32,000 bases of DNA from an uncultured Chloroflexia bacterium (GTDB lineage Bacteria > Chloroflexota > Anaerolineae > Anaerolineales > Anaerolineaceae): the NCBI GenBank assembly GCA_963704755.1, contig OY969938.1, forward strand, positions 1,080,001 to 1,112,000, in the 5' to 3' direction. Position 1 is the first letter of the stretch; the number at the start of each line of letters is the position of its first letter. Shown here piece after piece: positions 11,912 through 29,273 of this stretch. The position numbers were made by a program, and so were the translations under genes. The notes under the pieces were generated by a model. That model worked only from the letters and a program-made list of their open reading frames with translations, did no database searches and had not been told where the DNA came from.

Positions 11912-12185
11912 CCGGGTAATACACCTGTTCGTCTGCACTTTTCCCGATTTTTATCATCTATGCGTCCGCTGAAAAAATCAATCCTCGTAAGCGAGGAATG
12001 CTATGGGTGTGTATAGCGGTTTCGTCGCTTCATCCACTTATAGCCTCCTTCTTCCGGTATTGGAATTTTTCAGCAGACTCAGCTATACGAAGGAAAGCCG
12101 CCGGTTTGCAAATCTCGGGGCGACCACGCCCTGAACGGTTTGCGCGTTCAACTTTCTGATTCAACATCGTTTACGGAGGGTTTTT

Positions 12186-13674: not shown

Positions 13675-15086
13675 GCGAAACCTGCCAACTCGCCGTCATT
13701 GGAGCCGGCCCGGCCGGCCTGGAAGCCGCCATTGCTGCCGCCGAAGCGGGCGTAGATACGATCCTCATCGACAGCGCTCTGCGGGCAGGCGGCCAATATT
13801 ACAAACCCCTGCCGGCCGCTTTCCGGCCCCTGCGCCAAACCGGGACGGAAAAGGAAGGCGAAAGCCTGGTCGCCCGGCTGGAACGTAGCGGCGCCAAACG
13901 GATCTACGACGCCCTCACCTGGGGGCTGTTCACCGAAGAAGATGGGAACGGCTACCGGCTGTGCCTGTCGGTGGCCGGCTCGCCCCGCCAGATCCACGCG
14001 GACCGGCTGGTCCTGGCCGGCGGCGCCTACGATACCCCCCTGGCTTTCCCGGGCTGGACCCTGCCGGGCGTATTAACCTGCGGCGCCGCCCTGAACCTGC
14101 TCAAGAACCAGCGCGTCGCGCCTTTCAAGCGGGTGCTGGTCAGCGGGACCGGGCCGCTCTCGCTCTCGGTCGCGGCCCACCTGGTCGCCGCCGGCGTCGA
14201 GGTTGCCTGCCTGTGCGAAGCCAACCACATTCCGTTGAGCGCAGCCGGCTATGGCCCGCAAATGTTAGGGCATGGACACCGCATCACCGAGGGCATTCAA
14301 TATGTCTCTACGCTCATCGGCGGGGGCACGCGCGTCCGCATGGGCTGGTCGGTCGTCGAAGCGCGCGGAAAAGAGCGCGTCGATCAGGCCGTCATCGCAA
14401 AGCTGGATAATTCCGGCGCTCCCATTCCCGGCAGCGAGCAGGTCCTTGCAGTAGATGCCGTCATCTGCGGCTTTGGGCTCACCCCCAACAACGGCATGGC
14501 CCGCATGCTTGGCTGTCAATTCGCAGTGGACCCCGCCAATGGAGAATGGGTTCCCCGGCGCGACGGCCGCATGCAGACCAGTTTACCGGGAGTGTACATG
14601 GCCGGCGATTGCGTCCAGATCAACGGCGCCGAGAACGCGCGCCTGGAAGGGCGCCTGGCCGGCACCGCGGCCGCCCTGGACTGCCAGCGCATCTCCCCCG
14701 CCCAGGCGGACCACACTTTCGCCCAGATCCAGCCGGCCTTGAGCCGCCAGCAGCGCTACGGGCGCATGCTGGCCAAACTGTTCCCGCTTAAAGCGGGCCT
14801 GCGCACCCTGGCTCACGACGAGACCTACGTCTGCCGCTGCGAAGAAGTGACCCAGGGCATGGTCAAAGCCGCCATCGCCGCCGGGGCAACCACGATCGGT
14901 GAGGTCAAGATGGTCACCCGGGTGGGAATGGGCAACTGCCAGGGCCGCATTTGCGAACAGACCATCGCCCGCATCATCGCTCAGGAACTTTCCAGCGATC
15001 CAGCTTCTGCCGGCATGTACACCATCCGCCCACCCCTGCACCCCCTGCCGATCGGCTTCTTCGCCAAAGATGAGCAGGAAATTTAA
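13671..15086 (+). CDS. FAD/NAD(P)-binding oxidoreductase subunit with a C-terminal BFD-like [2Fe-2S] domain (HcnB / OoxA-like alpha subunit)
   Basis: LAVIGAGPAGLEAA, a second Rossmann fold (VLVSGTGPLSL), GDC, and a C-terminal CRCEEVT...GNCQGRIC. ATGA overlap with the upstream stop. Confidence 0.85.
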   Translation: MSETCQLAVIGAGPAGLEAAIAAAEAGVDTILIDSALRAGGQYYKPLPAAFRPLRQTGTEKEGESLVARLERSGAKRIYDALTWGLFTEEDGNGYRLCLSVAGSPRQIHADRLVLAGGAYDTPLAFPGWTLPGVLTCGAALNLLKNQRVAPFKRVLVSGTGPLSLSVAAHLVAAGVEVACLCEANHIPLSAAGYGPQMLGHGHRITEGIQYVSTLIGGGTRVRMGWSVVEARGKERVDQAVIAKLDNSGAPIPGSEQVLAVDAVICGFGLTPNNGMARMLGCQFAVDPANGEWVPRRDGRMQTSLPGVYMAGDCVQINGAENARLEGRLAGTAAALDCQRISPAQADHTFAQIQPALSRQQRYGRMLAKLFPLKAGLRTLAHDETYVCRCEEVTQGMVKAAIAAGATTIGEVKMVTRVGMGNCQGRICEQTIARIIAQELSSDPASAGMYTIRPPLHPLPIGFFAKDEQEI

Positions 15087-15109
15087 CTACTCAGCCACCG
15101 CAAAAGAGT

Positions 15110-15164
15110 GGGGTGTTTTTATTGTTTCCGCGTCCTTCGCACGCGGAAACAATAAAAACACCCC
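15110..15164. repeat. Perfect 24-bp-stem palindrome downstream of the flavoenzyme operon, flanked by a 10-bp outer inverted repeat
   Basis: ggggtgtttttattgtttccgcgt (15110-15133) is the exact reverse complement of 15141-15164, with a 7-nt loop. The outer pair is aactactcag (15085-15094) / ctgagtagtt (15181-15190). Confidence 0.9.
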
Positions 15165-15258
15165 TAATTTCTGAACCAGCCTGAGTAGTTCCCAGGAAAC
15201 AGCGTACCGCCTGTCTGTACACCTATAGAATACTAAACACATTTGTGTAAATTGACAA

Positions 15259-15287
15259 TTGACAAAACAGTCATATTAGGGTAATAT
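15259..15287 (+). promoter_or_regulatory. Near-consensus sigma-70-type promoter
   Basis: TTGACA (15259-15264), 17 nt, TAATAT (15282-15287). A second TTGACA sits 7 nt upstream (15252-15257, the direct repeat attgacaattgaca). Confidence 0.55.
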
Positions 15288-15294
15288 ACACATG

Positions 15295-15536
15295 TATTCA
15301 CATCCTGATGTCCGCCAGGACGTCGGTAAAACCCCACAACGAACACCCTCTGGTCCCCTCATACCCAGAGCTGGGTCGTGGCCAGGCAATCGCCTGGCTG
15401 CGCCGAAATTATCCATAGTGTTTCCGCGAATTACACACAACGGGCACAGGATCTTTATTCGTATTTTACCGGTACGGGGTTTTACCGACAAACAGTACTT
15501 CTCATCCAACAATCCCAATGCAGGAGAATAGATTCC
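15295..15536 (+). promoter_or_regulatory. Long candidate 5' leader with a closing long-range helix (possible cis-regulatory RNA)
   Basis: gtcggtaaaacccc (15322-15335) is the perfect complement of ggggttttaccgac (15476-15489). An alternative partner, ttttaccg, lies at 15464-15471. Internal hairpins include gccagg-caatcg-cctggc and ctctgg...ccagag. ORFs here have no recognisable protein features. Confidence 0.3.
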
Positions 15537-16337
15537 ATGGAATACACCGGGTACCTTGATTTCTGGTTCACCGACCGGCCCATGGTCGAACGGATAGAGC
15601 CGATGGTAAAACTCGGCTTTCGCCATTTAGACGTGTGGTCCTGGCGCCAGCAGCCCATGGCCGAACTGGCCGCCGAATGCCGCCGCCTGGGCGCAGTGCT
15701 TAACTCCGTCTTCGATGACCACATGGGCAACCTGGCCGACCCGAACGATAACGAGCTGACTTTACGCACCTGGTCCGAGAGCCTGGAAATGGCTACCCGC
15801 TTTGGCGTCGAGCACCTCTTCCTGTTTTCCAACCAGGTGGACCTGATCGACGGGCATACCTGGACCCGGCGCCTTTCCTCCAATTTCACTGAAGCCGAGC
15901 AATACGCCAATACGCTCAAGCAGACCGAAAAGATCCTCAAGCTGGCCGAGCGAACCTCCGTCAAAGTTTGGATCGAAGCGCTGAATGAGTTTCACATCAA
16001 GGGCGGCGTGCTGGTTCACAACCACGAGATGGCCGCGGATTGGGTGCGCCGCATCGACCACCCGCAGTTGCGCATGGTCTTCGACTGCTATCACCAACAG
16101 CGCGGTTCCGGTGACCTGATCTGGGGCCTGGAACAATATGCCGGCCTGTACGAGGCCGTCCACATTGCCGACGTACCCACCCGCCAGGAGCCCGGCACGG
16201 GTGAAATCAACTTCACCAATATCCACAAAAAGCTGGTGGAATTGAACTACGACGGCTTTATCGGACTCGAATTCTACCCATCCACCAACGAAGCCGAAGC
16301 GCTGGAAACTGTAAAAAAGATCATGCCGCTCGGCTGA
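15537..16337 (+). CDS. Xylose-isomerase-like TIM-barrel protein, hydroxypyruvate isomerase (Hyi/OtnI) family
   Basis: The C-terminal block [13 protein letters not shown]...[19 protein letters not shown]...[11 protein letters not shown] matches the Hyi pattern (YDIYH...[15 protein letters not shown]...Y.GW.G.EY.P) as I recall it. ATG at 15537 after AGGAG. Confidence 0.8.
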
Positions 16338-16362
16338 GCCGGCCAGAAAAGGAAGAGCAGCC

Positions 16363-17160
16363 ATGCCGATTCGCAGGCTCAACCATATTTTCAAAGCGGA
16401 TGGACGCGCGCTAATCGTCGCCTTTGACCACGGCCTGACCGAAGGCCCGACCAAGGGCATGGAGAACGCCGGCGAGACCCTCGAAAAAATCGCAAACGGC
16501 GGCGCAGACGCCATTCTGACCAGTTACGGTGTGGCCAGCCGCTTCGCCCGGCAAATTTCCGGCCTGGGGTTGATCCTGCGCCTGGATGTCGGCGGCACCA
16601 AAATCGGCAAGATGGGCCCCGGCAAACCGTTTTTCAGCGTGGAAGATGCCTTGCGCCTGGGCGCCGACGCCGTCGCCGTTTCCGCTTTCCCGGGTACGCC
16701 CCAGGAATCCGAGACGATGCAGACCTTGGCCCACACCATTGGCGCAGCCCATCCCTGGGGCATGCCGGTCATGGCCGAGATGCAGCCGGGTGGCTTCGAT
16801 GCCGGCCCGGAATACAATACGGCCGAGAACATCGCCATTTCCGCCCGGGTTGCCGCCGAACTGGGCGCCGACTGGGTTAAAGTGCCGTTCGTTAAGGCCT
16901 TCGACCAGGTCGTACGGTCATGTTACGTCCCGGCGGTCATGTTGGGCGGGGTGAAAGTCAACGACGAAAGCCTCTTGCTCGAAATGGTCTGGGGCGCAGT
17001 AGCTTCAGGCGCGGCCGGGGTAGCCATCGGGCGCAATATTTTCCAGGCCGAAGACCCCCAGGCGATCGTCACCGCCATTAGCGCGATCCTGCACCAGGGC
17101 GCCAGTGTGGACCAGGCCGTCGAGATCTACCGCCAGCACCACGCCGGCCAGAAACACTGA
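16363..17160 (+). CDS. Class I aldolase of the DeoC/FbaB (DhnA, LsrF, ADH-synthase) family
   Basis: LIVAFDHG, a Schiff-base lysine context DWVKVPF, and [10 protein letters not shown] at the C-terminus. 265 aa. Confidence 0.85.
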
Positions 17161-17181
17161 GAGCCTATCTAAAAAATATTT

Positions 17182-17230
17182 TTCAGGTATTTATTTTGGG
17201 AGGCAAAACCGCCCAAAATAAATACCTGAA
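17182..17230. repeat. AT-rich palindrome with a 19-bp perfect stem between the aldolase and kinase genes
   Basis: ttcaggtatttattttggg (17182-17200) is the exact reverse complement of 17212-17230. Confidence 0.85.
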
Positions 17231-17278
17231 GCGATTTACGGATAGAACCTGAACCACACCAATGCGGAGCCTGACTGA

Positions 17279-18787
17279 ATGAAAGACGCCATTCTCGGAA
17301 TTGATATCGGTACCTCGTCCACCAAAGCTATCCTTTTTGACCTGTCTGGGAATGAAATCACCACCGCGGGGCAGCCTTATCCCCTCTCGACCCCCCAACC
17401 CGGCTGGGTCGAACAGGATTCCGAGGCCGTCTGGCAGGCCCTCATCCGCGTTTTACAGGATATCGTGGCCCAGTCCGAGGGCTACCGGATTTCTGCCCTG
17501 GCCATCGCGGCCCAGGCCGGGTCGATCATCCCGGCCGACCTGGCGGGTGACCCGGTCTATCCGATGATTACCTGGCTGGATACGCGCACCCAGGACCAGG
17601 CCCAACGCTGGCAGGCGGATGGCACCGCTGCGACGATCCGCCGCCTGAGCGGCTGGCAGCCCTTCCCGGGCCTGCCGCTGCCCTCCATCCGTTGGCTTAA
17701 AGACAACAACCCCGAAGCCCATCGCGCCGCCAAACGCTTCCTCGGGCCGGCCGATTTTCTAATTCACCGCCTGACCGGCAAGTTCGCCACCGACCTGTCC
17801 GCCGCCTCCGAAATGCTGCTGGTGGACATCAAAACCGGCCTGTGGAGCGACGAACTGTGCGAGATCGGCGGGGTTGACCCGGCCCTGCAATCCGAAATCG
17901 GTTGGGCCGGGCGTAAATTAGGCGAAATCACCCCCGAAGCGGCCCGCCTGACCGGCCTGATGGCCGGCACGCCTGTGATTGCCGGCGGCAACGACCAGCC
18001 CTGCGCCGGATTAGGCATGGGCATGACCGCGCCGGGCAAAGTAATGCTTTCCACCGGCACCGCCTGGGTATTGATGAGCGTGATCGAAGCCGACACGGTC
18101 GAGGCCGTTCCGGAATGGGTTAACCTGTATTTCCACGCCGTTCCCGGCAAGCGCCTGGCCGGGCAGTTGGTGGGCGGGTTTGGCGCCACCATCGATTGGT
18201 GGCTGAGCCAGGCCCAGCCCGGTACCGACCCGGCCGCACCTCGTGATCCGGCTAAACTGTACGCCGTTTTGAACGAAGCGGTCGCCTCCAGCCCTGCCGG
18301 CAGCCGCGGCTTGCTATTTCTATCCCTGAACGGACCCTCGCAGGTGACGAACGCCGTCGCCGGGGGCGGTTTCGTCGGTATGGAGCTGGCCCACACCTGG
18401 GCCGACATGAGCCGCGCCATCCTGGAAGGCTGTGCTTTCGAACTGCGCTGGGCCGTCAATGAGCTGCGCGCGGCCGGCATCCCGGTCGAAGAATTGTGGC
18501 TGGCCGGTGGGGCCAACCGCAGCCCGGTCTGGCCGCAGATCTTGTCCGATGTGAGCGGGCTGCCCCTGCAGGTGGCCGGTTACGCCGATTGGGCCGCCCT
18601 GGGCGCGGCCGCCCTGGCCGGTTGGGGAATTGGCGCTTTTGCCACCCTGGAAGAAGGCGTCGCCTGCTTGCAGCCCCATTTACAACGCTTGCAGCCCAAC
18701 CGCGACCTGGCTCCGCTTTACGCCGAGCGCCTGGATGCCTACCAACGCATTTCATGGGCCGTCAACCGCGAGCGCCAGACGCGCTAA
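17279..18787 (+). CDS. FGGY-family carbohydrate kinase (xylulokinase/LsrK-like)
   Basis: ILGIDIGTSSTKA N-terminal ATPase motif, WVEQD, and the C-terminal GGANRSPVWPQILSDV signature. 502 aa. Confidence 0.9.
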   Translation: MKDAILGIDIGTSSTKAILFDLSGNEITTAGQPYPLSTPQPGWVEQDSEAVWQALIRVLQDIVAQSEGYRISALAIAAQAGSIIPADLAGDPVYPMITWLDTRTQDQAQRWQADGTAATIRRLSGWQPFPGLPLPSIRWLKDNNPEAHRAAKRFLGPADFLIHRLTGKFATDLSAASEMLLVDIKTGLWSDELCEIGGVDPALQSEIGWAGRKLGEITPEAARLTGLMAGTPVIAGGNDQPCAGLGMGMTAPGKVMLSTGTAWVLMSVIEADTVEAVPEWVNLYFHAVPGKRLAGQLVGGFGATIDWWLSQAQPGTDPAAPRDPAKLYAVLNEAVASSPAGSRGLLFLSLNGPSQVTNAVAGGGFVGMELAHTWADMSRAILEGCAFELRWAVNELRAAGIPVEELWLAGGANRSPVWPQILSDVSGLPLQVAGYADWAALGAAALAGWGIGAFATLEEGVACLQPHLQRLQPNRDLAPLYAERLDAYQRISWAVNRERQTR

Positions 18788-18839
18788 ACCCCCTTTCGTA
18801 ACCCGCTGGTGTACATGCAATTTTCGTGTTTATTGTCAG

Positions 18840-18868
18840 TTGACGTTAATCCCTCGGTTCGCTATAAT
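18840..18868 (+). promoter_or_regulatory. Near-consensus sigma-70-type promoter for the Mch-like 3 operon
   Basis: TTGACG (18840-18845), 17 nt, TATAAT (18863-18868), about 90 nt upstream of the ATG at 18960. Confidence 0.6.
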
Positions 18869-18959
18869 GACTGAAGAGCCGTTGTAGCGGAGCCCCATCA
18901 TTGGTTTCACAATTACGTTCCAGGCTTAAACCCCCAATCACATTCCATAAGGAGAAAAC

Positions 18960-19937
18960 ATGCAAGGCTATAGTCTCAATCATACTGCGGTTGGGATCAT
19001 CAAAGATGCGATTACCAGGGCTGACGAATTTCAGATCCGCTCATGGCGCGCCGAGTGTGGTAGTACCCTGGTCGATATGGGTTTGACCTGTCCGGGAAGT
19101 TGGAAAGCCGGCCAGGCTTTCGTCGAAGCAGGTTTTGGCGGGATGGGCAAGGCCACCTACGGCAAGTTCGATATCGGCCCCTTCACCGTACCCTCCATCG
19201 ACGTATGGGTGGATCACCCGGTTTTAGCCGTGGTGGCCTCTCAGGCTGGCTGCTGGGAGTTAGGTTCAGGCGAACTGGCCGAGATCGGTTCCGGCCCTGC
19301 CCGGGCCGTGGCCCTGGCCGATCGCTGGGCCGGGCACGGTTACCGCGACCCCGATCCGAGTGAAGTCGTCGTCCAACTCCAGACCCACCGGGTGCCTTCC
19401 GATGATCTCTGCCGGGCCGTGGCGGATGCCTGCCACCTGCCGCCGGAGAAAGTGTACGTCGTGTTTGCGCCCACTGCTTGCCTGGTAGGCGCTATCCAGG
19501 TGGCCTCCCGCACGGTAGAACAGGTCATGATCAAGCTGTTCATGCGCGGTTTCGACATTCACAGCGTGAAATATGGCTTTGGCACTGCCCCGGTCGCCCC
19601 GCTGGTCAACGACGAAGCCGAGGTTATGGGCCGCGCCAACGACGCCCTCTTCTACGGCGCCACCACCGTGTTGTACGCCGATGTACCCGATGAAACTATT
19701 AGTGCCATCATCAACAACTTCTGCTTCGACGTCAACTCGGGTGAATTCTGGGGCACGCCGTTCGCCTCCATCTTCGACCATTTCCATCACAACTGGTTCG
19801 AAGTGCCCGACCTGGTCAACTCACCCGCCAAGGTGATCATCAACAGCCTACAAACCGGGCATTCTTTCGTCGGTGGACAGATCAACCGGGAAGTTCTGGC
19901 ACGCTCCTACTTCGGTTACGATCTGACCGCCAAATAA
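18960..19937 (+). CDS. Mch-family cyclohydrolase-like protein, paralogue 3
   Basis: 325 aa. GSGPARA, EKVYVVFAPTACLVGAIQVASRTVEQ, ANDALFYGA and a C-terminal TGHSFVGGQINREVLARSYFG. AAGGAG RBS 5 nt upstream. Confidence 0.85.
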   Translation: MQGYSLNHTAVGIIKDAITRADEFQIRSWRAECGSTLVDMGLTCPGSWKAGQAFVEAGFGGMGKATYGKFDIGPFTVPSIDVWVDHPVLAVVASQAGCWELGSGELAEIGSGPARAVALADRWAGHGYRDPDPSEVVVQLQTHRVPSDDLCRAVADACHLPPEKVYVVFAPTACLVGAIQVASRTVEQVMIKLFMRGFDIHSVKYGFGTAPVAPLVNDEAEVMGRANDALFYGATTVLYADVPDETISAIINNFCFDVNSGEFWGTPFASIFDHFHHNWFEVPDLVNSPAKVIINSLQTGHSFVGGQINREVLARSYFGYDLTAK

Positions 19938-20022
19938 TTCCTTCTCAACTTCGAAAACAACCAAACCATCCTGTAAACCTGTAAAAACGATCGCCTGATC
20001 CTCTACTTGGAGATTGGACACG

Positions 20023-21336
20023 ATGCTTATCCTCCCATCCTGGTTAATCGCAAGCGCAAAAGAAAAGCCCCTGGCCTGCTGGGGTGTTCGGGTCGAGGGC
20101 AGCGAAATCACTACCGTGGCTGCCAACGCCGAACTTAAACAGCGCTTCCCTAACGAAGAAGTCTGGGAGGCGCCCGGGCAGGTATTAGCCCCCGGCTTCG
20201 TCGATGCCCACACTCACCTGTACGGAATCCTGGCACACGGTATCCCGTTATCCAAAGCGCCTTCCGGGTTCATGCCCTTCCTGGATGAATTCTGGTGGCC
20301 GCTGGTCGAAAACCGGCTGGATTGCAAAATGATCTGCGCCGCCACGGCCGCCAACTGTGCCGCCATGATCCGCTCCGGCATCACGTCGTTCTATGACTGT
20401 GAAGAAGCGCCCAACGCCCTGCCTGGGATTCTGAACGCCCAGGCCGAGGTGGTTCGTGCGGCCGGGCTGCGCGGGATCCTATCCTTCGAAGCCACCCAAC
20501 GGCTGGGCAAAGCGATTGGCCAGTCGGGCCTGGAAGAAAACGCCGCCTTCACCAAAGCCGCCCGCGAGCGGAACGACCTGGTCAGCGGGATGATGTGTTT
20601 TCACACCACCTTTACCTGTGACTCCGACTTTATCCGCCAGGCCTACGATCTGGCGGAACAATGCGATTCCCTGGTGCATGCGCACTGCTCCGAAGGCACC
20701 TACGAGCCGGATTACACGTCCGAAAAATTTGGCCAACGCCCTATCCAGTTCTACGACCGGCTGGGCGTACTGGGCGAGCGCAGCCTGCTCTCGCAATGTG
20801 TCCAGGTGGACCGCGAGGAAATCGAGCTGCTGGCCGCCCGCAAAGCCCGTGTGACCCACATGCCGCTTTCGAATTGCGAGGTCGGCGGCGGAATTGCCCC
20901 GGTGCCGCAAATGGTCGCGGCCGGCATCACCCTGGGGCTGGGCTCGGACGGGTACATCACCGACTTCTTCGAGGTAATGCGCGGCGCTTTCCTGATCCAT
21001 AAAGCCGACCAGCTTGACCCGCAGGTCATGCCCGCCGGGCTGGTCTGGTACCTGGCAACCGAGGGCGGCGCGGCCGCCCTCGGCCTGAACAAGGTTGGCC
21101 GCCTGGCCCCCGGCTGGCAAGCCGACCTGCAATTATTCAAGGCGAACCTGCCCACCCCGCTGGCCGAACACAACCTGTACGACCAGACTCTACTGTACTG
21201 TCACCAAACCGATGTAACCGCTACCATTGTGGCCGGAAAGACCCTGATGCGGGATGGTGTCATCGCGGGTAGCGACCAGGCTGCACTGCTGGCCAATACC
21301 CATGAAGCCGCCCTGCGCCTGTGGAACGCGGCTTAG
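20023..21336 (+). CDS. Amidohydrolase-superfamily aminohydrolase/deaminase (COG0402), SsnA-like
   Basis: GFVDAHTHLYG (HxH), HAHCSEG and GLGSDG. Several blocks resemble E. coli SsnA as I recall it (FWWPL.. vs LWWRLD; DFFEVMRGAFLIHK vs DMFEEMKFAFFKHR; GWQADLQLF...LPTPL vs GYKADLTICDYNSPTPL). ATG at 20023 after GGAGA. Confidence 0.8.
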   Translation: MLILPSWLIASAKEKPLACWGVRVEGSEITTVAANAELKQRFPNEEVWEAPGQVLAPGFVDAHTHLYGILAHGIPLSKAPSGFMPFLDEFWWPLVENRLDCKMICAATAANCAAMIRSGITSFYDCEEAPNALPGILNAQAEVVRAAGLRGILSFEATQRLGKAIGQSGLEENAAFTKAARERNDLVSGMMCFHTTFTCDSDFIRQAYDLAEQCDSLVHAHCSEGTYEPDYTSEKFGQRPIQFYDRLGVLGERSLLSQCVQVDREEIELLAARKARVTHMPLSNCEVGGGIAPVPQMVAAGITLGLGSDGYITDFFEVMRGAFLIHKADQLDPQVMPAGLVWYLATEGGAAALGLNKVGRLAPGWQADLQLFKANLPTPLAEHNLYDQTLLYCHQTDVTATIVAGKTLMRDGVIAGSDQAALLANTHEAALRLWNAA

Positions 21337-21373
21337 CAACCCAATCCGAACTCATTTATATGGCCTGAAACGT

Positions 21374-21880
21374 ATGGATATTGAATTTATTCTGAACGAA
21401 AAACCTGTAAAGATCGAAGCCCCGGCCGACCGCACGCTGTTGAATGTGCTGCGGGACGACCTGGGACTGACCGGCACCAAGTGTGGCTGTGACACCGGCG
21501 ACTGCGGGGCTTGCTCCGTTTTGCTGGACGACAAACTGGCCAAATCCTGCCTGCTCAAGATCGCCGACATCCAGGGCCGCAAAGTCACCACCATCGAAGG
21601 TATCCACGGCGAAGACGGCGGCATCAGCGACCTGCAGGAATTATTCTTGCAGAACGGCGCCGTCCAATGCGGCTACTGCATCCCGGCCATGGTTCTGGCC
21701 GGCGAAGCCCTGCTGCGCCATAACCCCACTCCCGACCGCGATGAAATTCGTAACGGGATCTCGCATGTGCTGTGCCGCTGCATCGGCTACCAGCAAATCA
21801 TCGACGCCGTCGAACAGACCGCCCACCAGCGCCAGAAAACCAGGAAGCAATCGCAATCCAGCCTGGAGAGTGCCTTATGA
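21374..21880 (+). CDS. Xanthine-dehydrogenase/aldehyde-oxidase family small subunit with two [2Fe-2S] clusters (CoxS-like)
   Basis: CGCDTGDCGACSV and QCGYCIPAM...CRCIGY cysteine motifs. ATG at 21374; the upstream part of the ORF-track ORF overlaps the previous gene. Confidence 0.9.
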   Translation: MDIEFILNEKPVKIEAPADRTLLNVLRDDLGLTGTKCGCDTGDCGACSVLLDDKLAKSCLLKIADIQGRKVTTIEGIHGEDGGISDLQELFLQNGAVQCGYCIPAMVLAGEALLRHNPTPDRDEIRNGISHVLCRCIGYQQIIDAVEQTAHQRQKTRKQSQSSLESAL

Positions 21881-24210
21881 GCGAATATCGATACATTGGC
21901 AAACGCTCTTACCCCGAAGACGGCCTGGCCAAAGTGACCGGGCAGGCCCGCTATGTAGGCGATTATTCCATTCCCGGCATGCTGTACGCCAAAGTATTGC
22001 GCAGCCCTGTACCCCACGCGACTATCCGTCACCTGGACGTCTCGCCTGCTCTCAAGGTCCCCGGCGTGCTGGCCGTCGTCACCGCCGAAGATTTTGTCAA
22101 CCACGGCAATTGGGGCTGGCCTATCAAGGATGCTTACGCAATCGCCTGGAAGAAAGTGCGCTACGTTGGTGACCCGATCGCGGCCGTCGCGGCCGAGACC
22201 GAGGAAGCCGCGCTGGCAGGTATCCGCGCCATCCGGGTCGAACTCGAAGAACTGCCCGTGGTCAGCGATATCCACCACGCCCTCGATCCGGACGCTCCTA
22301 TTATTCCGGATACCGAAGAACCGGGCAAAGGCAACATCACCAATACCCACCTGGTGCGCAACGGCAACCCCGACCCGATCCTGGCCAAAAGCGACATCGT
22401 ATTGGACGAAAGCTACTTCTTCAAGCACCAGGAGCACGCTTACATGGAAACCGAGGCAGCCCTGGCCATCCCCGAACCGGGCGGCGGGCTGACTTTTTAC
22501 GCCAACGACCAATCGCCCTTCATCAACCGGGATAACCTGGTCATGCTGCTGGGACTGCCCATGCCCAAAATACGGGTGATCCAGGCTCATGTGGGCGGAT
22601 CCTTCGGCGGTAAAGACGATATCGGCTACCAGAACTGCGCCCAGGCCGGCGCGCTGGCCTTGAAGACCATGCGGCCCGTCCGCCTGGTGCTGACCCGCAC
22701 CGAATCTTTCCTGGCTTCGTACAAGCGCGAGGCCATGGACGTCCACATCAAGCTCGGCGCGACCGCGGATGGCGAATTGCAAGCGGCCCGGGTAGAAATG
22801 CTGGCCGACAGCGGGGCCTATTCTTCCATGACCCCTCTGGCCTCCTGGCGCGCTTCAGTCCACGCTGCCGGACCTTACCGCTACCGGGCCGTCCACGTGG
22901 ATACGACCTCGGTCTATACCAACAACAACTATTCCGGCGCTTTCCGCGGCTTTGGTAACCCCCAGGCCATCGGCGCCATCGAACAGGCCATCGACGAGCT
23001 GGCCTACCGGCTACACCGCGACCCGATCGACCTGCGCTTGCAGAACTGCCTGAAGAGCTACGACATCACCATGACCGGCAACCGGATCAACCACACCGTT
23101 CACCTGACCGAATGCCTGAACCTGGTGCGCGAACACTCCGAATGGGACCGCAAACGGGCCAAATACGCTTCCGGCCAGGCCGGTGACGTGCGGCGCGGTA
23201 TTGGGGTGGCCTGTTACTTCCACGGCAGCAGCCTGGGTGGAGAGGGCGCAGACTACGCCACCACCACCATGAACATCGAATTGGATGGCTCGGTCACGAT
23301 TACTTCCGGCCTGACCGATTTCGGCCAGGGCAGCCGCACCGTATTCACCCTGATCGCGGCCGAAGAGTTGGGTGTGGATAAGAAACGCATCCACCTGCTG
23401 CGGCCCGATACCCAGACCGCCATCGAATCAGGCGCGACGGTGGCTTCACGCGCGTCCATCATGGGCGGCAACGCCACCCGCATCGCGGCCAATCGCTTGA
23501 ACCAGATCCTGCTCTGGGCCGCTGCGCGGGCCTTCCAATGCCAGCCCGACCAGGTCCACCGTCACGAAGAGTACTTCATCGGCCCAGGCGAAGAGCAGAT
23601 GACCTTCGACGAGGTAAGCCGTTCAGCCCGCGATATGGGCTTTTCGCTGTACACCCAGGGTAAATGGGAAATGCCACCCTTCAAATGGGATTTCGACAAC
23701 GGCACCGGCGTCCCTTACCATTGCTACACCTTCGGCGCCCAGGTAGCCGAGGTCGAAGTCAACCTGGCCACCGGCGTTACCAAAGTGCTCGGGGTTTGGG
23801 CGGCTCACGATGGCGGCCGGATCATCTTCCCCCAGGGAGCCATGGGCCAGATGTATGGCGGCGTGGCCATGGGGCTGGGATACGGCCTCACTGAAAATGT
23901 CAGCTTCCATAACGGCTATCCGCAGGCGCTGAACCTGCACAGCTATCACATCCCCACCGCCCACGACGTGCCCCCCATCGATGGCAATTTCATCCAGGTC
24001 GACAAACCGGATGGGCCTTTTGGCGCGCTCAACCTGGCCGAGCCCATGATGATTTCCACTGCGCCGGCTATTGCGAACGCTATTTTCCAGGCAACCGGCA
24101 AGCGCTGGCGCAAATTCCCGCTGACCCCCAAAGTGATCCTGACCGGCAGCGACGACCCCGACCGGGACACCTCGGAAGACTGCCGCAGAGGCCTGGGGCT
24201 GATCCCCTGA
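21877..24210 (+). CDS. Xanthine-dehydrogenase-family molybdopterin-binding large subunit (Mo hydroxylase)
   Basis: GKVTGQARYVGD N-terminus, GGSFGGK, FRGFGNPQ and a C-terminal NLAEPMM (active-site Glu context). 777 aa. ATGA overlap with the small subunit, and GGAGAG RBS. Confidence 0.9.
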   Translation: MSEYRYIGKRSYPEDGLAKVTGQARYVGDYSIPGMLYAKVLRSPVPHATIRHLDVSPALKVPGVLAVVTAEDFVNHGNWGWPIKDAYAIAWKKVRYVGDPIAAVAAETEEAALAGIRAIRVELEELPVVSDIHHALDPDAPIIPDTEEPGKGNITNTHLVRNGNPDPILAKSDIVLDESYFFKHQEHAYMETEAALAIPEPGGGLTFYANDQSPFINRDNLVMLLGLPMPKIRVIQAHVGGSFGGKDDIGYQNCAQAGALALKTMRPVRLVLTRTESFLASYKREAMDVHIKLGATADGELQAARVEMLADSGAYSSMTPLASWRASVHAAGPYRYRAVHVDTTSVYTNNNYSGAFRGFGNPQAIGAIEQAIDELAYRLHRDPIDLRLQNCLKSYDITMTGNRINHTVHLTECLNLVREHSEWDRKRAKYASGQAGDVRRGIGVACYFHGSSLGGEGADYATTTMNIELDGSVTITSGLTDFGQGSRTVFTLIAAEELGVDKKRIHLLRPDTQTAIESGATVASRASIMGGNATRIAANRLNQILLWAAARAFQCQPDQVHRHEEYFIGPGEEQMTFDEVSRSARDMGFSLYTQGKWEMPPFKWDFDNGTGVPYHCYTFGAQVAEVEVNLATGVTKVLGVWAAHDGGRIIFPQGAMGQMYGGVAMGLGYGLTENVSFHNGYPQALNLHSYHIPTAHDVPPIDGNFIQVDKPDGPFGALNLAEPMMISTAPAIANAIFQATGKRWRKFPLTPKVILTGSDDPDRDTSEDCRRGLGLIP

Positions 24211-24271
24211 CCCGCCGAAGAGTTATTTGTACCTATTTACCGGTTGTTTTGAACTGTTTACAGAAACAATG

Positions 24272-24359
24272 AAACCACAGATTTATACAGATCAACATAG
24301 ATAGCGGACAAGGTTAGAAGTCTTTAAAATCTGTGTCCATCCGTGTTCATCTGTGGTTT
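24272..24359. repeat. Solo copy of the core of the 169-bp repeat, framed by an 11-bp inverted repeat, directly upstream of the LLM gene
   Basis: 24323-24355 (tttaaaatctgtgtccatccgtgttcatctgtg) is identical over 33 nt to 2601-2633. aaaccacagat (24272-24282) and atctgtggttt (24349-24359) are exact reverse complements. Confidence 0.9.
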
Positions 24360-24381
24360 ATTTATCCCCTATGGAGGAAGT

Positions 24382-25401
24382 ATGACCCAAAGAATGGCGT
24401 TGTATATGCAAGACAAGCACCCCATCCAATACGAGTTGGAGATGGCAAAGTATGCCGAGGATCGCGGTTTCAGCGAAATCTGGCAAGCAGATACGCGCCT
24501 GGCGCGTGACTGCATTGCCATGATGAGCGCGTTCCTGGCCCGTACCAGCCGGATGCGCTTCGGTTCGGCTGTTTTACCCATCTGGACTCGCAATCCGGCA
24601 GTAATCGCCTCCACCTGGAGCACCATGTGGGAACTGGGCGGAAAATATGATGGTCGCGGCCGGGTAATGCTGGGCCTTGGCGCCTGGTGGGAACCGATCG
24701 CCGGGCGGGTTGGCGTTCACCGCGTTAAACCGCTGAAAGCCATGCGCGAGCATATCGAAGCCATTCGCCAGTTGTTCACCATGGAAGAAGTCAGCTACGA
24801 GGGTGAGTTCGTCCACCTGGACCGCATCCGCCTGGACGTAGCCTTTGGCGACACCAGCCCACGCGATATTCCCCTGTACATCGGCGCAACCGGCGACCAG
24901 ATGCTCGAAATGTCCGGCGAGATTTGTGATGGCGTGGTCCTGAATTACGTCGTTTCGGTCGATTACATCCGCAAGGCGGTCGCCCTGGTCGAAAAAGGCG
25001 CCAAAAAAGCCGGCAAGACCCTGGCCGACGTGGACCGACCCGAACTGCTGGTGTGCTGCCTGTCCGATATGGATCCCAAAGCCGCGATGGCCGAGGGCAA
25101 GAAACTGGTGGCTTATTACCTGGCCACCGAACCGCATATTATGAAAGCCTCCGGCGTGGACGAGAGCCTGCTGGAAAAAGTCCAATCGATGATGAGCTGG
25201 CCCGCGACCGAAGAAGATTACATCCGCACCAGCCAGGTCATCCCGGATGAGGTGGTCCGCAATGTGATGGCCGTCGGCACCACCGAAGAATGCCGCGCCA
25301 AGGTCAAGGAATACATCGACGCCGGCGTGACCTGCCCCATCCTCTACCCGATGATGGACGACATCAAACCGGTCGTCGACGCTTTTGCCGATTGGGGCTA
25401 G
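24382..25401 (+). CDS. Luciferase-like (LLM) flavin/F420-dependent oxidoreductase, Mer/F420-reductase-like class
   Basis: 339 aa TIM-barrel LLM pattern ([19 protein letters not shown]..., [17 protein letters not shown]). ATG at 24382 after GGAGG. The cofactor cannot be decided from sequence reading. Confidence 0.8.
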
Positions 25402-25630
25402 ATACCTTCGGCCAATCGCCAGATTCACGGCTGAATCCCTGGCGCCTGTTTACCGTTTGTACTTTACAAGCATTCCACAATCAACCACTACCCTGGCCGG
25501 CGAAAGAACATCCTGATTCGAGGTGTCCGCAGAGGCGAAACTCTGCAAACGCCTCAAATCAGGAAACCTTTTTACTGTAAGCCAGGTAGTTAAGTAGCCA
25601 TTGTAACCACCCAGGCAAGTTCAAGGGTGA

Positions 25631-25685
25631 GGGTACTTTTGTTGATTTTCGCGTGCGTAGCACGCGAAAATCAACAAAAGTACCC
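25631..25685. repeat. Perfect 25-26-bp-stem palindrome upstream of the carbamoyltransferase gene
   Basis: gggtacttttgttgattttcgcgtg (25631-25655) is the exact reverse complement of 25661-25685. The arm sequence is related to those at 15110 and 28105. Confidence 0.9.
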
Positions 25686-25745
25686 GACCCTTTCCGAATA
25701 GCCGGGCAGCTACAAACCATTTATAAAAATACAGGAGAAACTAAA

Positions 25746-26738
25746 ATGCAATCAACCTTGTTTGGCAAGAGTTTCATCTCCACTGAAGACTGGTCCAACG
25801 ACGAAATCGAATTGCTGTTGGATGTAGCCGGTGACCTGAAACGCCGCTTCTCAATGGGCGAGCTTCACGACCAGATTCTGCGCAGCAAGACTTTATTCAT
25901 GCTCTTCTTTGAAGAATCCACCCGCACGCGCAACTCATTCGAAGCCGGCATCACCCAACTGGGCGGTCACGCTCACTATTTGACCCCCTCGGCCACCCAG
26001 ATCGGCCACGGTGAGAACGCCAAAGACACCGGCACCGTCCTTGGCCGCTACGGCCATGCTATCGCCGTGCGTGACTGCCGCACCGATATCGGCCAGGCCT
26101 ACCAGTACGATCTGGCCAAATACGCCGGTATCCCCGTCATTTCGATGCAGGACGATGTGGACCATCCCTGCCAGGCGATGGCCGACCTGTTGACCATCCG
26201 CGAGAAATTCGGGCAGGACCTGCGCGGCAAGAAATTCGTCATTTCCTGGACCTACGCCCCCAAGTACGTCCGCCCACTTTCGATGCCCCAGGCCCTGATC
26301 ATGCTGATGACCCGCTTCGGCATGGACGTCACTCTGGCGCACCCCAAAGGCTTCGAAATGATGCCCAAGTGCCTGGATATCGCCCGCAAGCACGCCGAAG
26401 AAAATGACACCAAGTTCGAAGTCGTCAACGACATGGACGCGGCCTTCGAAGGCGCAGATATCTGCTACGCCAAGTCCTGGGGCCCCATCACGGTCTCCGA
26501 AGAGCCCAAAGAGGTCCAGGCCATGTGCGACGAGCACAAGGATTGGATCTGCGACGAACGCCGCATGGCCCTCTCCAACAAAAAATCGATCTACATGCAC
26601 TGCATGCCCATCGACCGGGGTTACGAAGCTACCGACGCGGTGGTAGATGGCCCTCACTCCGTAATCTATGACGAAGCCGAGAACCGCTTACACGTGCAAA
26701 AAGCGATCATGGCGCTCACCATGGGTGGCAGGATTTAA
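25746..26738 (+). CDS. ygeW: YgeW-type (knotted) carbamoyltransferase of the ATCase/OTCase superfamily
   Basis: ESTRTRNSF carbamoyl-phosphate motif, DHPCQAMADL and YMHCMP. The block LMTRFGMDVTLAHP matches E. coli YgeW as I recall it. ATG at 25746 after AGGAGA; the ORF-track GTG at 25653 lies inside the palindrome. Confidence 0.85.
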   Translation: MQSTLFGKSFISTEDWSNDEIELLLDVAGDLKRRFSMGELHDQILRSKTLFMLFFEESTRTRNSFEAGITQLGGHAHYLTPSATQIGHGENAKDTGTVLGRYGHAIAVRDCRTDIGQAYQYDLAKYAGIPVISMQDDVDHPCQAMADLLTIREKFGQDLRGKKFVISWTYAPKYVRPLSMPQALIMLMTRFGMDVTLAHPKGFEMMPKCLDIARKHAEENDTKFEVVNDMDAAFEGADICYAKSWGPITVSEEPKEVQAMCDEHKDWICDERRMALSNKKSIYMHCMPIDRGYEATDAVVDGPHSVIYDEAENRLHVQKAIMALTMGGRI

Positions 26739-27883
26739 TGGATAAAAAACGCTTAATCGCCTTCACCCAGGATATCATCCGGGTGCGGAGCATGAGCGGC
26801 GAGGAACAGGCAGTCGTAGCCCGCATCAAAGCTGAAATGGAAACTCTCGGCTTCGATCGCCTCTGGGTGGACGATTTTGGCAGTGTAATTGGCCTGATCG
26901 AAGGGGCCAAACCCGGCCCGACTCTGCTGATGGATGGCCATTGCGACATCGTGGACGCGCGCGCCTCCGATTGGAAACACGATCCCTTCGGCGCGGTCAT
27001 CGAAGATGGCTGGCTTTACGGCCGCGGTGTGGCCGACATGAAAGGCGGACTGGCGGGCATGATCTACGCCGCCGCCTCGGTTGACCGCAGCAAGCTGGCC
27101 GGCAAAGTCGCCGTCAGCGCCACGGTTCTGGAAGAGGTCATGGAAGGCGTGGCCCTGAAACAGGTCATGGACGTGCTCAAACCGGCCGGCGTAATCATCG
27201 GCAAATCGACCAATTTTGCCCTCAACCGCGCCCAGCGCGGGCGAGCCGAAATCGTCATCGAGACCGTCGGGAAATCGGCCCACTCCTCCTCCCCCCAGGC
27301 CGGCGTCTGCGCCGTCCATAAGATGATCGAATTGATGAACGCGGTCGAGGCCATTCCCATGTCCTCCAACCCGATCATGGGGAAAGGCCAGTTCTGCCTG
27401 ACCGACATCATCTCCGAACCCTTCCCCGGGCACTCGGTGGTTCCCAATCGCTGCCGGGTTTCTTACGACCGCCGCACAATCCCCGGTGAGACACCTGAAA
27501 GCCTGCTCGAATCCATCCACGCCCTGCCGGAACTCAAAGATATCGAGTACACCGTCACCATCCTGGATGGTGAAGAGAAGACCTATACCGGCAAAACCCT
27601 CAAAGGTTTGAAGTTCTTCCCGGCCTGGGCCTTCGAAGAAGACAATTTCCTGGTGGATGCGGCCTTACGCGGGCTGCGCGCCAGCGGATTTGATCCCAAA
27701 CTGGGCTCCTTCGGCTTCTGCACCAACGGCTCCTACAGCGCCGGCGTTGCAAACGTACCGACGATCGGTTTTGGCCCCGGCACCGAGCCGGATGCCCACA
27801 CTGTCAACGAGCACGTGAAAGTCAGCGACCTCGAACGAGCCGCCGATGGCTTCCTGGGCATGATCCAGTCTATCTTAAGCTAG
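26738..27883 (+). CDS. ygeY: M20-family metallohydrolase, YgeY-like (deacylase/carbamoylase type)
   Basis: MDGHCDIV, GRGVADMKGG, QRGRAEI...GKSAHSS and GFGPGTEPDAHTVNEHV. It is collinear with E. coli YgeY from memory. The start overlaps the ygeW stop (TAATG). Confidence 0.8.
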   Translation: MDKKRLIAFTQDIIRVRSMSGEEQAVVARIKAEMETLGFDRLWVDDFGSVIGLIEGAKPGPTLLMDGHCDIVDARASDWKHDPFGAVIEDGWLYGRGVADMKGGLAGMIYAAASVDRSKLAGKVAVSATVLEEVMEGVALKQVMDVLKPAGVIIGKSTNFALNRAQRGRAEIVIETVGKSAHSSSPQAGVCAVHKMIELMNAVEAIPMSSNPIMGKGQFCLTDIISEPFPGHSVVPNRCRVSYDRRTIPGETPESLLESIHALPELKDIEYTVTILDGEEKTYTGKTLKGLKFFPAWAFEEDNFLVDAALRGLRASGFDPKLGSFGFCTNGSYSAGVANVPTIGFGPGTEPDAHTVNEHVKVSDLERAADGFLGMIQSILS

Positions 27884-27986: not shown

Positions 27987-28035
27987 GAATTTGAACTGTT
28001 TGCGGTTGCAAAGCAACCGCAAACAGTTCAAATTC
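27987..28035. repeat. Perfect 23-bp-stem palindrome downstream of the YgeY-like gene
   Basis: gaatttgaactgtttgcggttgc (27987-28009) is the exact reverse complement of 28013-28035, with loop aaa. Confidence 0.9.
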
Positions 28036-28104: not shown

Positions 28105-28161
28105 GGGGGTGTTTTATAGTTTTCGCATGCGAAGCACGCGCAAACTATAAAACACCTCCCC
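28105..28161. repeat. Imperfect long palindrome related to the 15110 and 25631 elements
   Basis: gggggtgttttatagttttcgcatgc pairs with gcacgcgcaaactataaaacacctcccc, with one bulge and two mismatches. Confidence 0.75.
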
Positions 28162-28216: not shown

Positions 28217-29209
28217 ATGCAGTTTCGCGCTTTTGGACGGACGGGTTGGCAGGTTTCGACCATTGGGTTTGGCGCCTGGGAGATCGGTGGAGAATATGGA
28301 GCGGTGGACGATGCCGAGTTGCTGGCTGCCCTCCATCGCGCTGTGGACCTGGGGGTCAATTTCTTCGATACGTCCGATGTATACGGGGCTGCCGGCAACG
28401 GTCACAGTGAAAAGCTGTTGGGCCGCCTGCGCAAGGAATGTGGTGATTCGATCTATATCGCCACCAAGGCCGGGCGCCGCCTGAATCCGCATACGGCCGG
28501 TGGCTATAACTACGCGAACCTTTCAGCCTTCGTCGAGCAGAGCCTCAAGAACCTGGGCCTCGAGCGGATCGACCTGCTGCAACTGCACTGCCCGCCTTTC
28601 GAGGTGTACTACCAGCCCGAAACCTTCGCGGCCCTGGACCGGCTGGTCCAGGAAGGTAAGCTGCACTATTATGGCGTCAGTGTACAGAAGGTCGAAGAAG
28701 GCCTGAAGGCCATCGAATACCCCAATCTGCAATCGGTGCAGATCGTCTTCAACCCCTTCCGCCAGCGCCCGGCTGACCTGTTCTTCCAGGAAGCCCAACG
28801 CCGCCAGGTAGCCGTCATCGCCCGTGTCCCGTTGGCCTCGGGGATGCTGACCGGCAAGATGAAGCCGGATACCCACTTCGAGCAAGAAGACCACCGCGTG
28901 TTCAACCGCAACGGTGAGGTCTTCGACCGGGGAGAGACCTTTGCCGGCGTGGATTATACGGCCGGCCTGCAGGCGGTCGAAGAGCTGCGCCCGCTCGTCC
29001 CGGCCGGGATGACCATGGCCCAGTTCACCCTGCGCTGGATTCTGATGTTCGACGCCGTCACCTGCACCATTCCCGGTGCAAAACGGACCACCCAGGTGGA
29101 AGACAACGTCAATTCCGCCGATCTTGCCCCCCTTTCGCCGGTCACCATGGCCAAAGTGAAGGAAATCTACGACCGTCGCATCCGCGAGTTGGTGCAGTAT
29201 TACTGGTAA
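28217..29209 (+). CDS. Aldo/keto reductase
   Basis: GFGAWEIGG, the LGVNFFDTSDVYG...SEKLLG signature, and a C-terminal IPGAKR. 330 aa. Confidence 0.9.
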   Translation: MQFRAFGRTGWQVSTIGFGAWEIGGEYGAVDDAELLAALHRAVDLGVNFFDTSDVYGAAGNGHSEKLLGRLRKECGDSIYIATKAGRRLNPHTAGGYNYANLSAFVEQSLKNLGLERIDLLQLHCPPFEVYYQPETFAALDRLVQEGKLHYYGVSVQKVEEGLKAIEYPNLQSVQIVFNPFRQRPADLFFQEAQRRQVAVIARVPLASGMLTGKMKPDTHFEQEDHRVFNRNGEVFDRGETFAGVDYTAGLQAVEELRPLVPAGMTMAQFTLRWILMFDAVTCTIPGAKRTTQVEDNVNSADLAPLSPVTMAKVKEIYDRRIRELVQYYW

Positions 29210-29221: not shown

Positions 29222-29273
29222 CCGAAATTGAGGTGTATGCGAGGTTTTACCCTCGCATACACCTCAATTTCGG
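29222..29273. repeat. Perfect 23-bp-stem palindrome between convergent genes
   Basis: ccgaaattgaggtgtatgcgagg (29222-29244) is the exact reverse complement of 29251-29273, with a 6-nt loop. Confidence 0.9.

Follow-up and report, generated by a model that had tools for sequence, protein, structure and literature searches.

We analysed a stretch of 32,000 nt (hereafter the window) from contig OY969938.1 of an uncultured Chloroflexota bacterium, an Anaerolineales-like genome. Here a cyclohydrolase-family gene (Mch3) precedes genes for an SsnA-like amidohydrolase and for a two-subunit molybdenum enzyme. The genes were established from the listing of open reading frames (ORFs), Pfam and direct reading. 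Judging by its likeness to a characterised pathway, we interpret the region with moderate confidence as the upstream half of a set of genes for breaking down a purine-type N-heterocycle in an Anaerolineae-like member of the Chloroflexota. The core of this set would be the SsnA-like protein, the [2Fe-2S]/Mo enzyme without an FAD subunit, a Mer-like F420 oxidoreductase, a YgeW/AOTCase-like protein, YgeY and a D-hydantoinase. The main genes and signals are as follows.

18840-18868, plus strand: sigma-70-like promoter TTGACG-17-TATAAT, 11 of 12 consensus positions
18960-19937, plus strand: Mch3, cyclohydrolase family PF02289, 325 residues (Pfam E 2e-85)
20023-21336, plus strand: SsnA-like COG0402 amidohydrolase, 437 residues, best NCBIfam match SsnA (NF005540)
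21374-21880, plus strand: [2Fe-2S] small subunit (MoS), 168 residues, Fer2 and Fer2_2
21877-24210, plus strand: Mo large subunit (MoL) of the xanthine dehydrogenase (XDH) family, 777 residues, Ald_Xan_dh_C, MoCoBD_1 and MoCoBD_2
24326-24355, plus strand: copy of a 30-nt repeat, about 30 nt upstream of the start of the next gene
24382-25401, plus strand: Mer-like F420-type luciferase-like oxidoreductase (LLM), 339 residues, PF00296
25631-25685, plus strand: hairpin with a perfect 26-bp stem and no T-run (-67.9 kcal/mol and z = -11 for the 121-nt stretch 25600-25720 around it)
25743-26738, plus strand: knotted-carbamoyltransferase-like protein (AOTCase/YgeW-like, OTC family), 331 residues, from AOTCase/YgeW profiles and PDB matches
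26738-27883, plus strand: YgeY-family M20 hydrolase, 381 residues (NF009555)
9611-10993, plus strand: D-hydantoinase/dihydropyrimidinase (HyuA-like), 460 residues (TIGR02033)

The SsnA-like gene, whose ATG is preceded by GGAG, follows Mch3 after a gap of 85 nt. MoS starts after a further gap of 37 nt, and the MoL start overlaps the MoS stop as ATGA. These spacings, checked in the ORF listing and by direct reading, agree with an earlier note on this DNA. That note also described the [2Fe-2S] subunit and the 777-residue Mo subunit with its GGSFGGK, RGFG and AEP motifs, and stated that no FAD subunit lies in the window; our analysis confirmed both descriptions. All eight cysteines are present in the MoS sequence. 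No ORF of the window contained PF00941. Used as tblastn queries, E. coli XdhB, E. coli YgfM and two FAD subunits from Chloroflexota gave no match there either.

We then compared about 35 related loci, each at most 21 kb long with no more than 10 kb on either side, which are designated here by L numbers. Close MoL orthologues (at least 72% identity, about 14 loci) also have no FAD subunit. Among more distant orthologues (54-61% identity), an FAD subunit was found in L019, L023 and L024, whereas the L022 orthologue is fused as in XdhD. LLM occurs in about 14 loci without an FAD subunit and is absent within 10 kb in three loci that have one. A rule that loss of the FAD subunit goes with LLM was nevertheless set aside, because the LLM-linked loci form one clade and one FAD-containing genome has an LLM orthologue about 29 kb away.

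The profile scores of MoL were 530 bits for PucD, 521 for HcrA and 508 for XdhA. All three are below cutoff (784 for PucD and 780 for XdhA). The aldehyde oxidoreductase and PaoC models gave 381 and 275 bits, and the CO-dehydrogenase models also scored much lower. The best PDB match was the alpha subunit of 4-hydroxybenzoyl-CoA reductase, followed by nicotinate dehydrogenase. MoL is 31% identical to E. coli XdhA and 30% to XdhD; MoS has an XdhC-type protein as its best NCBIfam match and is 39% identical to E. coli XdhC. The WRAxxH motif, kept in all MoL orthologues, aligns with what we take to be Arg880 and His884 of mammalian XDH (human numbering). By the same presumed numbering, MoL has Asp at the Glu802 position and a Glu1261-like residue. 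Because the aldehyde oxidoreductase profiles score lower and the Arg880-like residue is kept, we assign MoL to a two-subunit enzyme of the XDH family and not to the aldehyde oxidoreductase type, in agreement with the heterocycle-type enzyme that had been supposed before. An argument for XdhD orthology from residue E606 was rejected, since that residue belongs to an insertion missing in MoL.

The enzymes encoded around the Mo enzyme resemble characterised families to different degrees. For the SsnA-like protein, the SsnA models scored best (272 bits against a cutoff of 444 for NF005540; 261 against 455 for TIGR03314). It is 26% identical to E. coli SsnA, compared with 21% to GuaD, and Chloroflexota have many orthologues with 64-86% identity. 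In NCBIfam and in the PDB, LLM matched methylene-tetrahydromethanopterin (methylene-H4MPT) reductases best (156 and 124 bits). FMN-type luciferase-like proteins reached at most 42 bits and the next F420 family 62 bits in the PDB search, so that LLM is placed by its matches with the F420 classes and not with the FMN classes. Its score is nevertheless under the two Mer model cutoffs (276 and 349 bits). The OTC-family protein scored 275 bits with the AOTCase model (cutoff 288) and 223 with the YgeW model (cutoff 453); its PDB matches were AOTCase (228 bits) and YgeW (3Q98, 200 bits), and it is 35% identical to E. coli YgeW. The M20 protein passes the YgeY model NF009555 (404 bits, cutoff 321; 33% identical to E. 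coli YgeY), and the product of 9611-10993 passes the D-hydantoinase model TIGR02033 (488 bits, cutoff 393; 40% identical to HyuA). The LLM orthologues were 84-92% identical. We also observed that LLM and the carbamoyltransferase (88-92% identity) are much better kept among relatives than the genes around them (SsnA-like 70-75%, MoL 75-78%, YgeY 75-79%, Mch3 79-84%).

The promoter lies in the 172-nt spacer between the FGGY gene and Mch3. As the earlier note had proposed, it stands ahead of the four plus-strand genes. It is the sole sigma-70 match of at least 11/12 on both strands of the window (about 0.12 expected per shuffled window), and a spacer of that size and composition would contain a match this good by chance with a probability of about 0.0012. 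On the plus strand, all five matches of at least 10/12 fall in spacers upstream of plus-strand genes (8811, 11135, 15252/15259 and 18840), and sigma-70-type promoters thus seem to be genuine here. The FGGY-Mch3 spacers of eight relatives gave no match of 9/12 or better, and the promoter is specific to this genome.

The four genes from Mch3 to MoL had been described as one promoter-led operon. A co-directional unit does exist and the four genes are probably co-transcribed, but an extent of four genes is too small, since the array goes on past 24210 with the LLM, OTC-like and YgeY-like genes. The hairpin at 25631-25685 is the first long one downstream of the promoter. Because none occurs from 18868 to 25631, the transcript most likely runs Mch3-SsnA-like-MoS-MoL-LLM, and this hairpin is likely its end.

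This hairpin is one of a family found in spacers of the window (11010-11074, 15110-15164, 17182-17230, 25631-25685, 27987-28035, 28105-28159 and 29222-29273). They have arms of 22-31 bp, loops of 3-7 nt and no T-run; five are perfect and two are 88-95% complementary, and a GGGxTxTTTT...CGCxTGC pattern is common to three. Such hairpins might act as "I-shaped" terminators or stabilise mRNA. A scan for intrinsic terminators gave four sites in comparison with 7.3 in shuffles, and two plus-strand sites within coding regions were disregarded. Searching the whole window with Rfam gave no match at gathering thresholds and no known RNA element. A riboswitch or RNA leader was also rejected: at E ≤ 1, positions 18700-26000 yielded just chance miRNA-like matches on the 25631-25685 hairpin. 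The 30-nt repeat before LLM occurs four more times in a tandem array upstream of the E1alpha gene (2193-2802). It is absent from all related loci and hence a genome-specific repeat, and we discarded it as a shared operator. That array (169-nt unit, about 4 copies) fills the Mch1-E1alpha spacer, and a second one (7040-7465; 130-nt unit, about 3.3 copies) fills the Mch2-LplA spacer. In L007 (OY969772.1, 8645-10000), the FGGY-Mch3 spacer is 1.3 kb long and full of tandem repeats of about 60 nt (GGATGCCGGCGGCTTGTGAAAGCCGCCCTACACCC...).

The comparison of related loci showed that the MoS-MoL-LLM-OTC-YgeY order is kept in L002-L005, L007, L025-L030 and L032-L033. The arrangement of the four genes from Mch3 to MoL is not unique to this genome either: it was found in six other loci (L002-L005, L029 and L035), with an Mch3-SsnA-like spacing of 25-33 nt in L002-L005. 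In a neighbour-joining tree, however, every locus in which Mch3 adjoins the SsnA-like gene falls in one terminal subclade. Elsewhere Mch3 follows other genes. The contexts are FGGY-Mch3-another Mch in L006 and L008, FGGY-Mch3-M20-OTC in L009 and DAO-Mch3 in L010-L016, where an HTH-cupin gene is directly downstream in L011 and L013-L016. An SDR-Mch context was found in L019 and an E2-Mch-amidohydrolase context in L017. Because the adjacency is confined to one terminal subclade, the junction is recent. By the tree and these neighbourhoods, we judge that Mch3 came to the SsnA-like unit recently, along with the neighbouring amine-oxidase/sugar module. The idea that Mch is the ancestral first gene of the unit thus does not hold.

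In L023, L024 and L025, the hydantoinase gene is directly upstream of the SsnA-like gene, unlike in this genome, where it lies 9 kb upstream. The order in L025 is SDR-Mch-E1-E2-Mch-LplA-HTHcupin-hydantoinase-SsnA-like-...-MoS-MoL-...-LLM-...-OTC-YgeY. This is the order of the window minus the block from the second HTH-cupin gene to Mch3 (DAO...FGGY-Mch3). A six-gene block (11333-18787) plus Mch3 stands between the two genes in the present lineage, and the genes of this block accompany Mch3 in L006-L013. The cluster thus sits in a large, shuffled island that holds several Mch paralogues.

Three Mch (PF02289) paralogues occur in the 32 kb, with about 37-45% mutual identity and all above the TIGR03120 equivalog cutoff (Mch3, 258 bits; cutoff 228.8). 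Mch3 aligns over its full length with Mch of M. kandleri (1QLM, E 2e-62) and keeps R113, Q179, R183, E186, N226 and D227 (A. fulgidus numbering). All three paralogues retain the catalytic Glu and Arg (equivalents of Glu186 and Arg183). Yet 18 of the 54 positions that are near-invariant in canonical (archaeal) Mch are altered in Mch3, and each paralogue has about one third of them altered. A fourth Mch clade adjoins Mch3 in L006 and L008, and relatives have at least four divergent Mch clades per island. Genes for Ftr, Mtd, Fae, Fhc and H4MPT biosynthesis were found neither in the window nor in the related loci. Our literature search returned nothing relevant on Mch paralogues in Chloroflexota clusters. 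Because the Mch catalytic residues are kept, Mch3 most likely hydrolyses a cyclic N-CH=N amidine; its target could be a pterin-bound one-carbon (C1) unit or a ring intermediate.

The first of these targets would make Mch1-3 and LLM pterin-C1 enzymes that work on tetrahydrofolate (THF) or an H4MPT-like carrier, as methenyl-pterin cyclohydrolase and F420-dependent methylene-pterin reductase. LLM would then not be a ring reductase. Such enzymes might handle C1 units freed in the island, e.g., by SoxB/SoxA-like amine oxidation or corrinoid demethylation. We regard this explanation as possible but rather unlikely. The three paralogues pass TIGR03120 with conserved catalytic residues, and Mer structures are the top matches of LLM (124 against 62 bits); however, LLM misses both Mer cutoffs, and three to four paralogues at 37-45% identity per island are hard to square with a single cofactor reaction. 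SoxB-like DAO genes adjoin Mch in five lineages, and sox and lig demethylation operons often have dedicated folD, purU or metF copies. The same islands hold FTCD_C, MtmB with a B12-binding protein, Pterin_bind and URO-D (L013, L015, L019, L024 and L025), although the window itself has no Pterin_bind or URO-D gene, and no locus showed a methylene-pterin dehydrogenase, formyltransferase or H4MPT-biosynthesis gene. A role on THF has already been proposed for the Mch and Mer homologues of haloarchaea (PMC8305020).

The second target corresponds to the suggestion of the earlier note, which put Mch3, the SsnA-like protein and the Mo hydroxylase into a single pathway and gave Mch a direct role on the heterocycle. 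An example would be hydrolysis of the N=CH-N amidine in a reduced purine that still has C8-H or C2-H, which would be a new activity of the Mch fold. We consider this improbable. Mch3 is probably co-transcribed with the other genes here and lies 25-33 nt from the SsnA-like gene in L002-L005, but this adjacency represents a single recent event, and the older partners of Mch3 are DAO, HTH-cupin, FGGY and E2 genes. Lineage-collapsed Mch contexts (14 in number) were mostly near COG0402 or cyclic amidohydrolase genes, and about six of them have an XDH-family gene nearby when the window-type subclade is collapsed; in L006 and L019, XDH-family genes lie within 10 kb of Mch. Mch paralogues are clustered with Mo enzymes without an FAD subunit, COG0402 amidohydrolases and a Xan_ur permease in L038, L025 and L006, and the order in L038 is Xan_ur permease-LplA-MoS-MoL (without FAD subunit)-SDR-Mch-E1-E2-COG0402 amidohydrolase-E3...PduL. 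At other loci, Mch is found with genes for SoxB-like oxidases and for methyl transfer by pterins or corrinoids, which would fit a C1-carrier role like that proposed for the haloarchaeal homologues. Orthologues of the SsnA-like protein gave 2470 matches, in comparison with about 78 for the Mch3 clade, and no Mch gene stands beside most of the SsnA-like clusters inspected (L022-L024). At least four divergent clades per island would be unusual for a cofactor-level enzyme, and the altered invariant positions with intact catalytic residues, together with the lack of Ftr, Mtd, Fae and Fhc genes at any locus examined, also point to an action on the heterocycle; the equivalog model is nevertheless still passed by all three paralogues. 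A wider form of this idea is that the Chloroflexota Mch paralogues and the Mer-like F420 enzyme were both recruited from the methanogen C1 toolkit and act on the substrate itself. A purine or pteridine ring would first be reduced with F420H2, and Mch would then hydrolyse the cyclic N-CH=N amidine so formed. We give this only a small chance of being right.

The pathway to which we compare the gene set is the reductive uric acid pathway, which was worked out in 2025 (Li et al., PMC12507026; Liu et al., bioRxiv 10.1101/2025.04.24.650524). In this pathway, XdhD/DOPDH reduces urate to 2,8-dioxopurine, and YgfK or UacX then reduces the ring. SsnA and HyuA serve for ring opening, the ureido groups are taken off by YgeY and either YgeW or UacY, and YgeX yields pyruvate (PMC12507026; 10.1101/2025.04.24.650524). 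Urate thus loses its C6 oxygen by reduction at the Mo enzyme, dearomatisation is the task of another reductase, and SsnA acts in ring opening with no deamination (PMC12507026; 10.1101/2025.04.24.650524). The XdhD of C. difficile has no FAD subunit (PMC12507026), and NAD(P)H is not used by the DOPDH of C. sporogenes (bioRxiv 10.1101/2025.04.24.650524). Li et al. (2025, PMC12507026) briefly noted an F420 luciferase-like enzyme instead of YgfK in SsnA neighbourhoods of Chloroflexota and proposed it as the substitute; in their neighbourhood analysis, these SsnA clusters are assigned to uricolysis. The E. coli cluster is ygeW-ygeX-ygeY-hyuA-yqeA ... ygfK-ssnA-ygfM-xdhD, with variants in C. difficile and C. 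sporogenes (PMC12507026; 10.1101/2025.04.24.650524).

Of the eight enzymes of the E. coli cluster, five have homologues in the window (HyuA, SsnA, XdhC/XdhA/XdhD, YgeW and YgeY). No YgfK or DHO_dh homologue was found there by tblastn and domain search. From this gene set we infer the substrate and the following catalytic steps. In step 1, the Mo enzyme would add or remove a ring oxygen, e.g., converting urate to 2,8-dioxopurine, and its two [2Fe-2S] clusters would link it for electron exchange to a ferredoxin-like partner and not to NAD(H). In step 2, the F420H2-dependent LLM would dearomatise the ring in place of YgfK/UacX. The SsnA-like enzyme would hydrolyse the pyrimidine ring in step 3, and the hydantoinase would open the second ring in step 4. 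In step 5, the carbamoyltransferase and YgeY would take off the ureido groups. The chemistry of this variant is probably reductive. The sequence "hydroxylate, deaminate, open ring" of the earlier note is at odds with the homologous characterised pathway, which is reductive and in which SsnA opens the ring without deamination (PMC12507026; 10.1101/2025.04.24.650524). As a whole, its interpretation is partly supported.

Several observations weigh against the assignment to purine catabolism. Identities to the E. coli enzymes are only 26-40%, and the cutoffs of the SsnA, XdhD and YgeW models are missed. The SsnA-like protein is far under both SsnA cutoffs and may fall outside the IPR017700 set of PMC12507026. 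MoL is equally distant from XdhA and XdhD and has no XdhD-specific insertion bearing E606, and the carbamoyltransferase is closer to AOTCase than to YgeW. The closest relatives of LLM are genuine Mer enzymes, so that its reaction could be on a pterin-bound C1 unit and not the reduction of the ring. An 88% LLM orthologue was found in L039 (8647-11020, on the contig of L023) about 29 kb from the SsnA-like/Mo cluster; it directly follows a UbiD-family decarboxylase gene and is near genes for a UbiX-like flavoprotein and amidohydrolases. A urate pathway also leaves unexplained the E1/E2 and LplA genes, the SDRs, the three Mch paralogues and the Pterin_bind and URO-D genes of L025. Finally, YgeX, YqeA, YqeB and YqeC had no tblastn match in the window or the related loci, so the end of the pathway must differ.

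Some of these observations would also be explained if the module broke down an N-heterocycle other than urate, such as a pteridine/lumazine, a pyrimidine or a nicotinate-like ring. The likeness to uricolytic clusters would then stem only from a common ring chemistry that uses a Mo hydroxylase, a reductase and cyclic amidohydrolases and removes ureido groups. The low identities, the missed model cutoffs and the missing YgeX and YqeA fit this explanation, and the nearest structures of MoL are 4-hydroxybenzoyl-CoA reductase and nicotinate dehydrogenase. MoL also has Asp in place of what we take to be XDH Glu802; the Arg880/His884-like WRAxxH, typical of purine-binding XDH, is nonetheless conserved. 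Hydantoinase, M20 and DHO_dh form a reductive pyrimidine enzyme set as well (L015 and L023), and pterin-binding families (Mch and the Mer-like enzyme) are enriched in the island. However, related islands contain nucleobase (Xan_ur) and Bmp nucleoside-type transporters, and SsnA clusters of Chloroflexota are classed as uricolytic in the published neighbourhood analysis (PMC12507026). We consider another ring unlikely and retain the purine-type substrate.

The remaining genes of the window extend the picture of the island.

9020-9610, plus strand: HTH-cupin regulator, preceding the D-hydantoinase gene
11333-18787, plus strand: six-gene block of HTH-cupin, SoxB-like DAO, SoxA-like Pyr_redox/BFD, sugar isomerase, DeoC-type aldolase and FGGY kinase
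396-8806, plus strand: second Mch module of SDR, Mch1, E1alpha, E1beta (frameshifted), E2, Mch2 and LplA
1178-2140, plus strand: Mch1 (PF02289)
6069-7031, plus strand: Mch2 (PF02289)

The SDR...LplA module is the more widely conserved Mch-containing part of the same island. Its E1beta gene (3825-4800) is frameshifted near 4534-4544, where tblastn with the L025 orthologue gave two high-scoring segment pairs (3825-4544 and 4534-4800). The split gene is either a pseudogene or a long-read assembly error. The three genes at 15378-18787 are constantly together, mostly with Mch3; they encode a hydroxypyruvate/2-oxo-tetronate-isomerase-like TIM barrel, a DeoC-family aldolase nearest to ADH synthase and LsrF, and an XylB/LsrK-like FGGY kinase. 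On the minus strand, 29322-31859 encodes a fused EIIA-Man/HPr/Enzyme I phosphotransfer protein of 845 residues, convergent with an aldo-keto reductase gene (28217-29209).

XdhD/DOPDH enzymes without an FAD subunit, including clostridial ones, are already known, and the window fits a pathway variant that is larger and in part already published. Only in 2025 was the reductive urate pathway established, in gut bacteria, and the Chloroflexota form, with F420 and without an FAD subunit, YgeX or carbamate kinase, has so far been mentioned only as a neighbourhood pattern. The window is a concrete, apparently complete example of this form with defined transcription signals. What is genuinely new is the radiation of Mch paralogues, plus a Mer-like enzyme, inside nucleobase-type catabolic islands of Chloroflexota. 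If these proteins have the ring or a dedicated pterin carrier as their target, two enzyme families hardly known outside methanogenesis and methylotrophy would gain a new role. This would bear on the function of Mch and Mer homologues where methanopterin is lacking, and an F420-dependent branch would be added to anaerobic purine turnover in soils and sediments. If Mch and the Mer-like enzyme both act on the substrate, this would be the first non-C1 function of the Mch fold and an F420-dependent anaerobic route for N-heterocycles. If they act neither on the ring nor on such a carrier, the cluster would be an ordinary lineage-specific variant of a known pathway.

Compared with known systems, Mch3 shares with canonical Mch (PF02289/TIGR03120; 1QLM, 4GVQ) the full-length alignment, the equivalog cutoff and the core residues, and differs in that it lies in a bacterial catabolic island without any other H4MPT-pathway gene. 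Mer (1Z69, 8QQ8) is the nearest solved and profile relative of LLM. Unlike Mer, LLM is below the Mer cutoffs and its gene is set between Mo-hydroxylase and carbamoyltransferase genes. As in haloarchaea, Mch and Mer homologues co-occur here outside methanogens (PMC8305020).

The Mo enzyme differs from XDH sensu stricto (XdhABC/PucCDE) in having no FAD subunit and, by the presumed numbering, Asp at Glu802, and its scores are below the XDH equivalog cutoffs. It has the same make-up, two [2Fe-2S] clusters and the molybdenum cofactor with no FAD domain, as other XDH-family enzymes of this kind (D. gigas MOP, IorAB and clostridial DOPDH), and has no cytochrome domains. HcrA of 4-hydroxybenzoyl-CoA reductase, its best PDB match, belongs to a reductive dehydroxylase, but the window has no HcrB-like FAD/[4Fe-4S] subunit.

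Unlike the E. coli cluster, the island has extra Mch paralogues, an E1/E2/LplA complex, SDRs and an amine-oxidase/sugar block. Like the uric acid clusters, it brings together an XDH-family Mo enzyme, an SsnA-like protein, a D-hydantoinase, a knotted carbamoyltransferase and a YgeY M20 hydrolase. The Mo enzyme is without an FAD subunit as in Clostridia, and, in accordance with the Chloroflexota pattern of PMC12507026, a PF00296 F420-type enzyme stands where YgfK or UacX would be expected.

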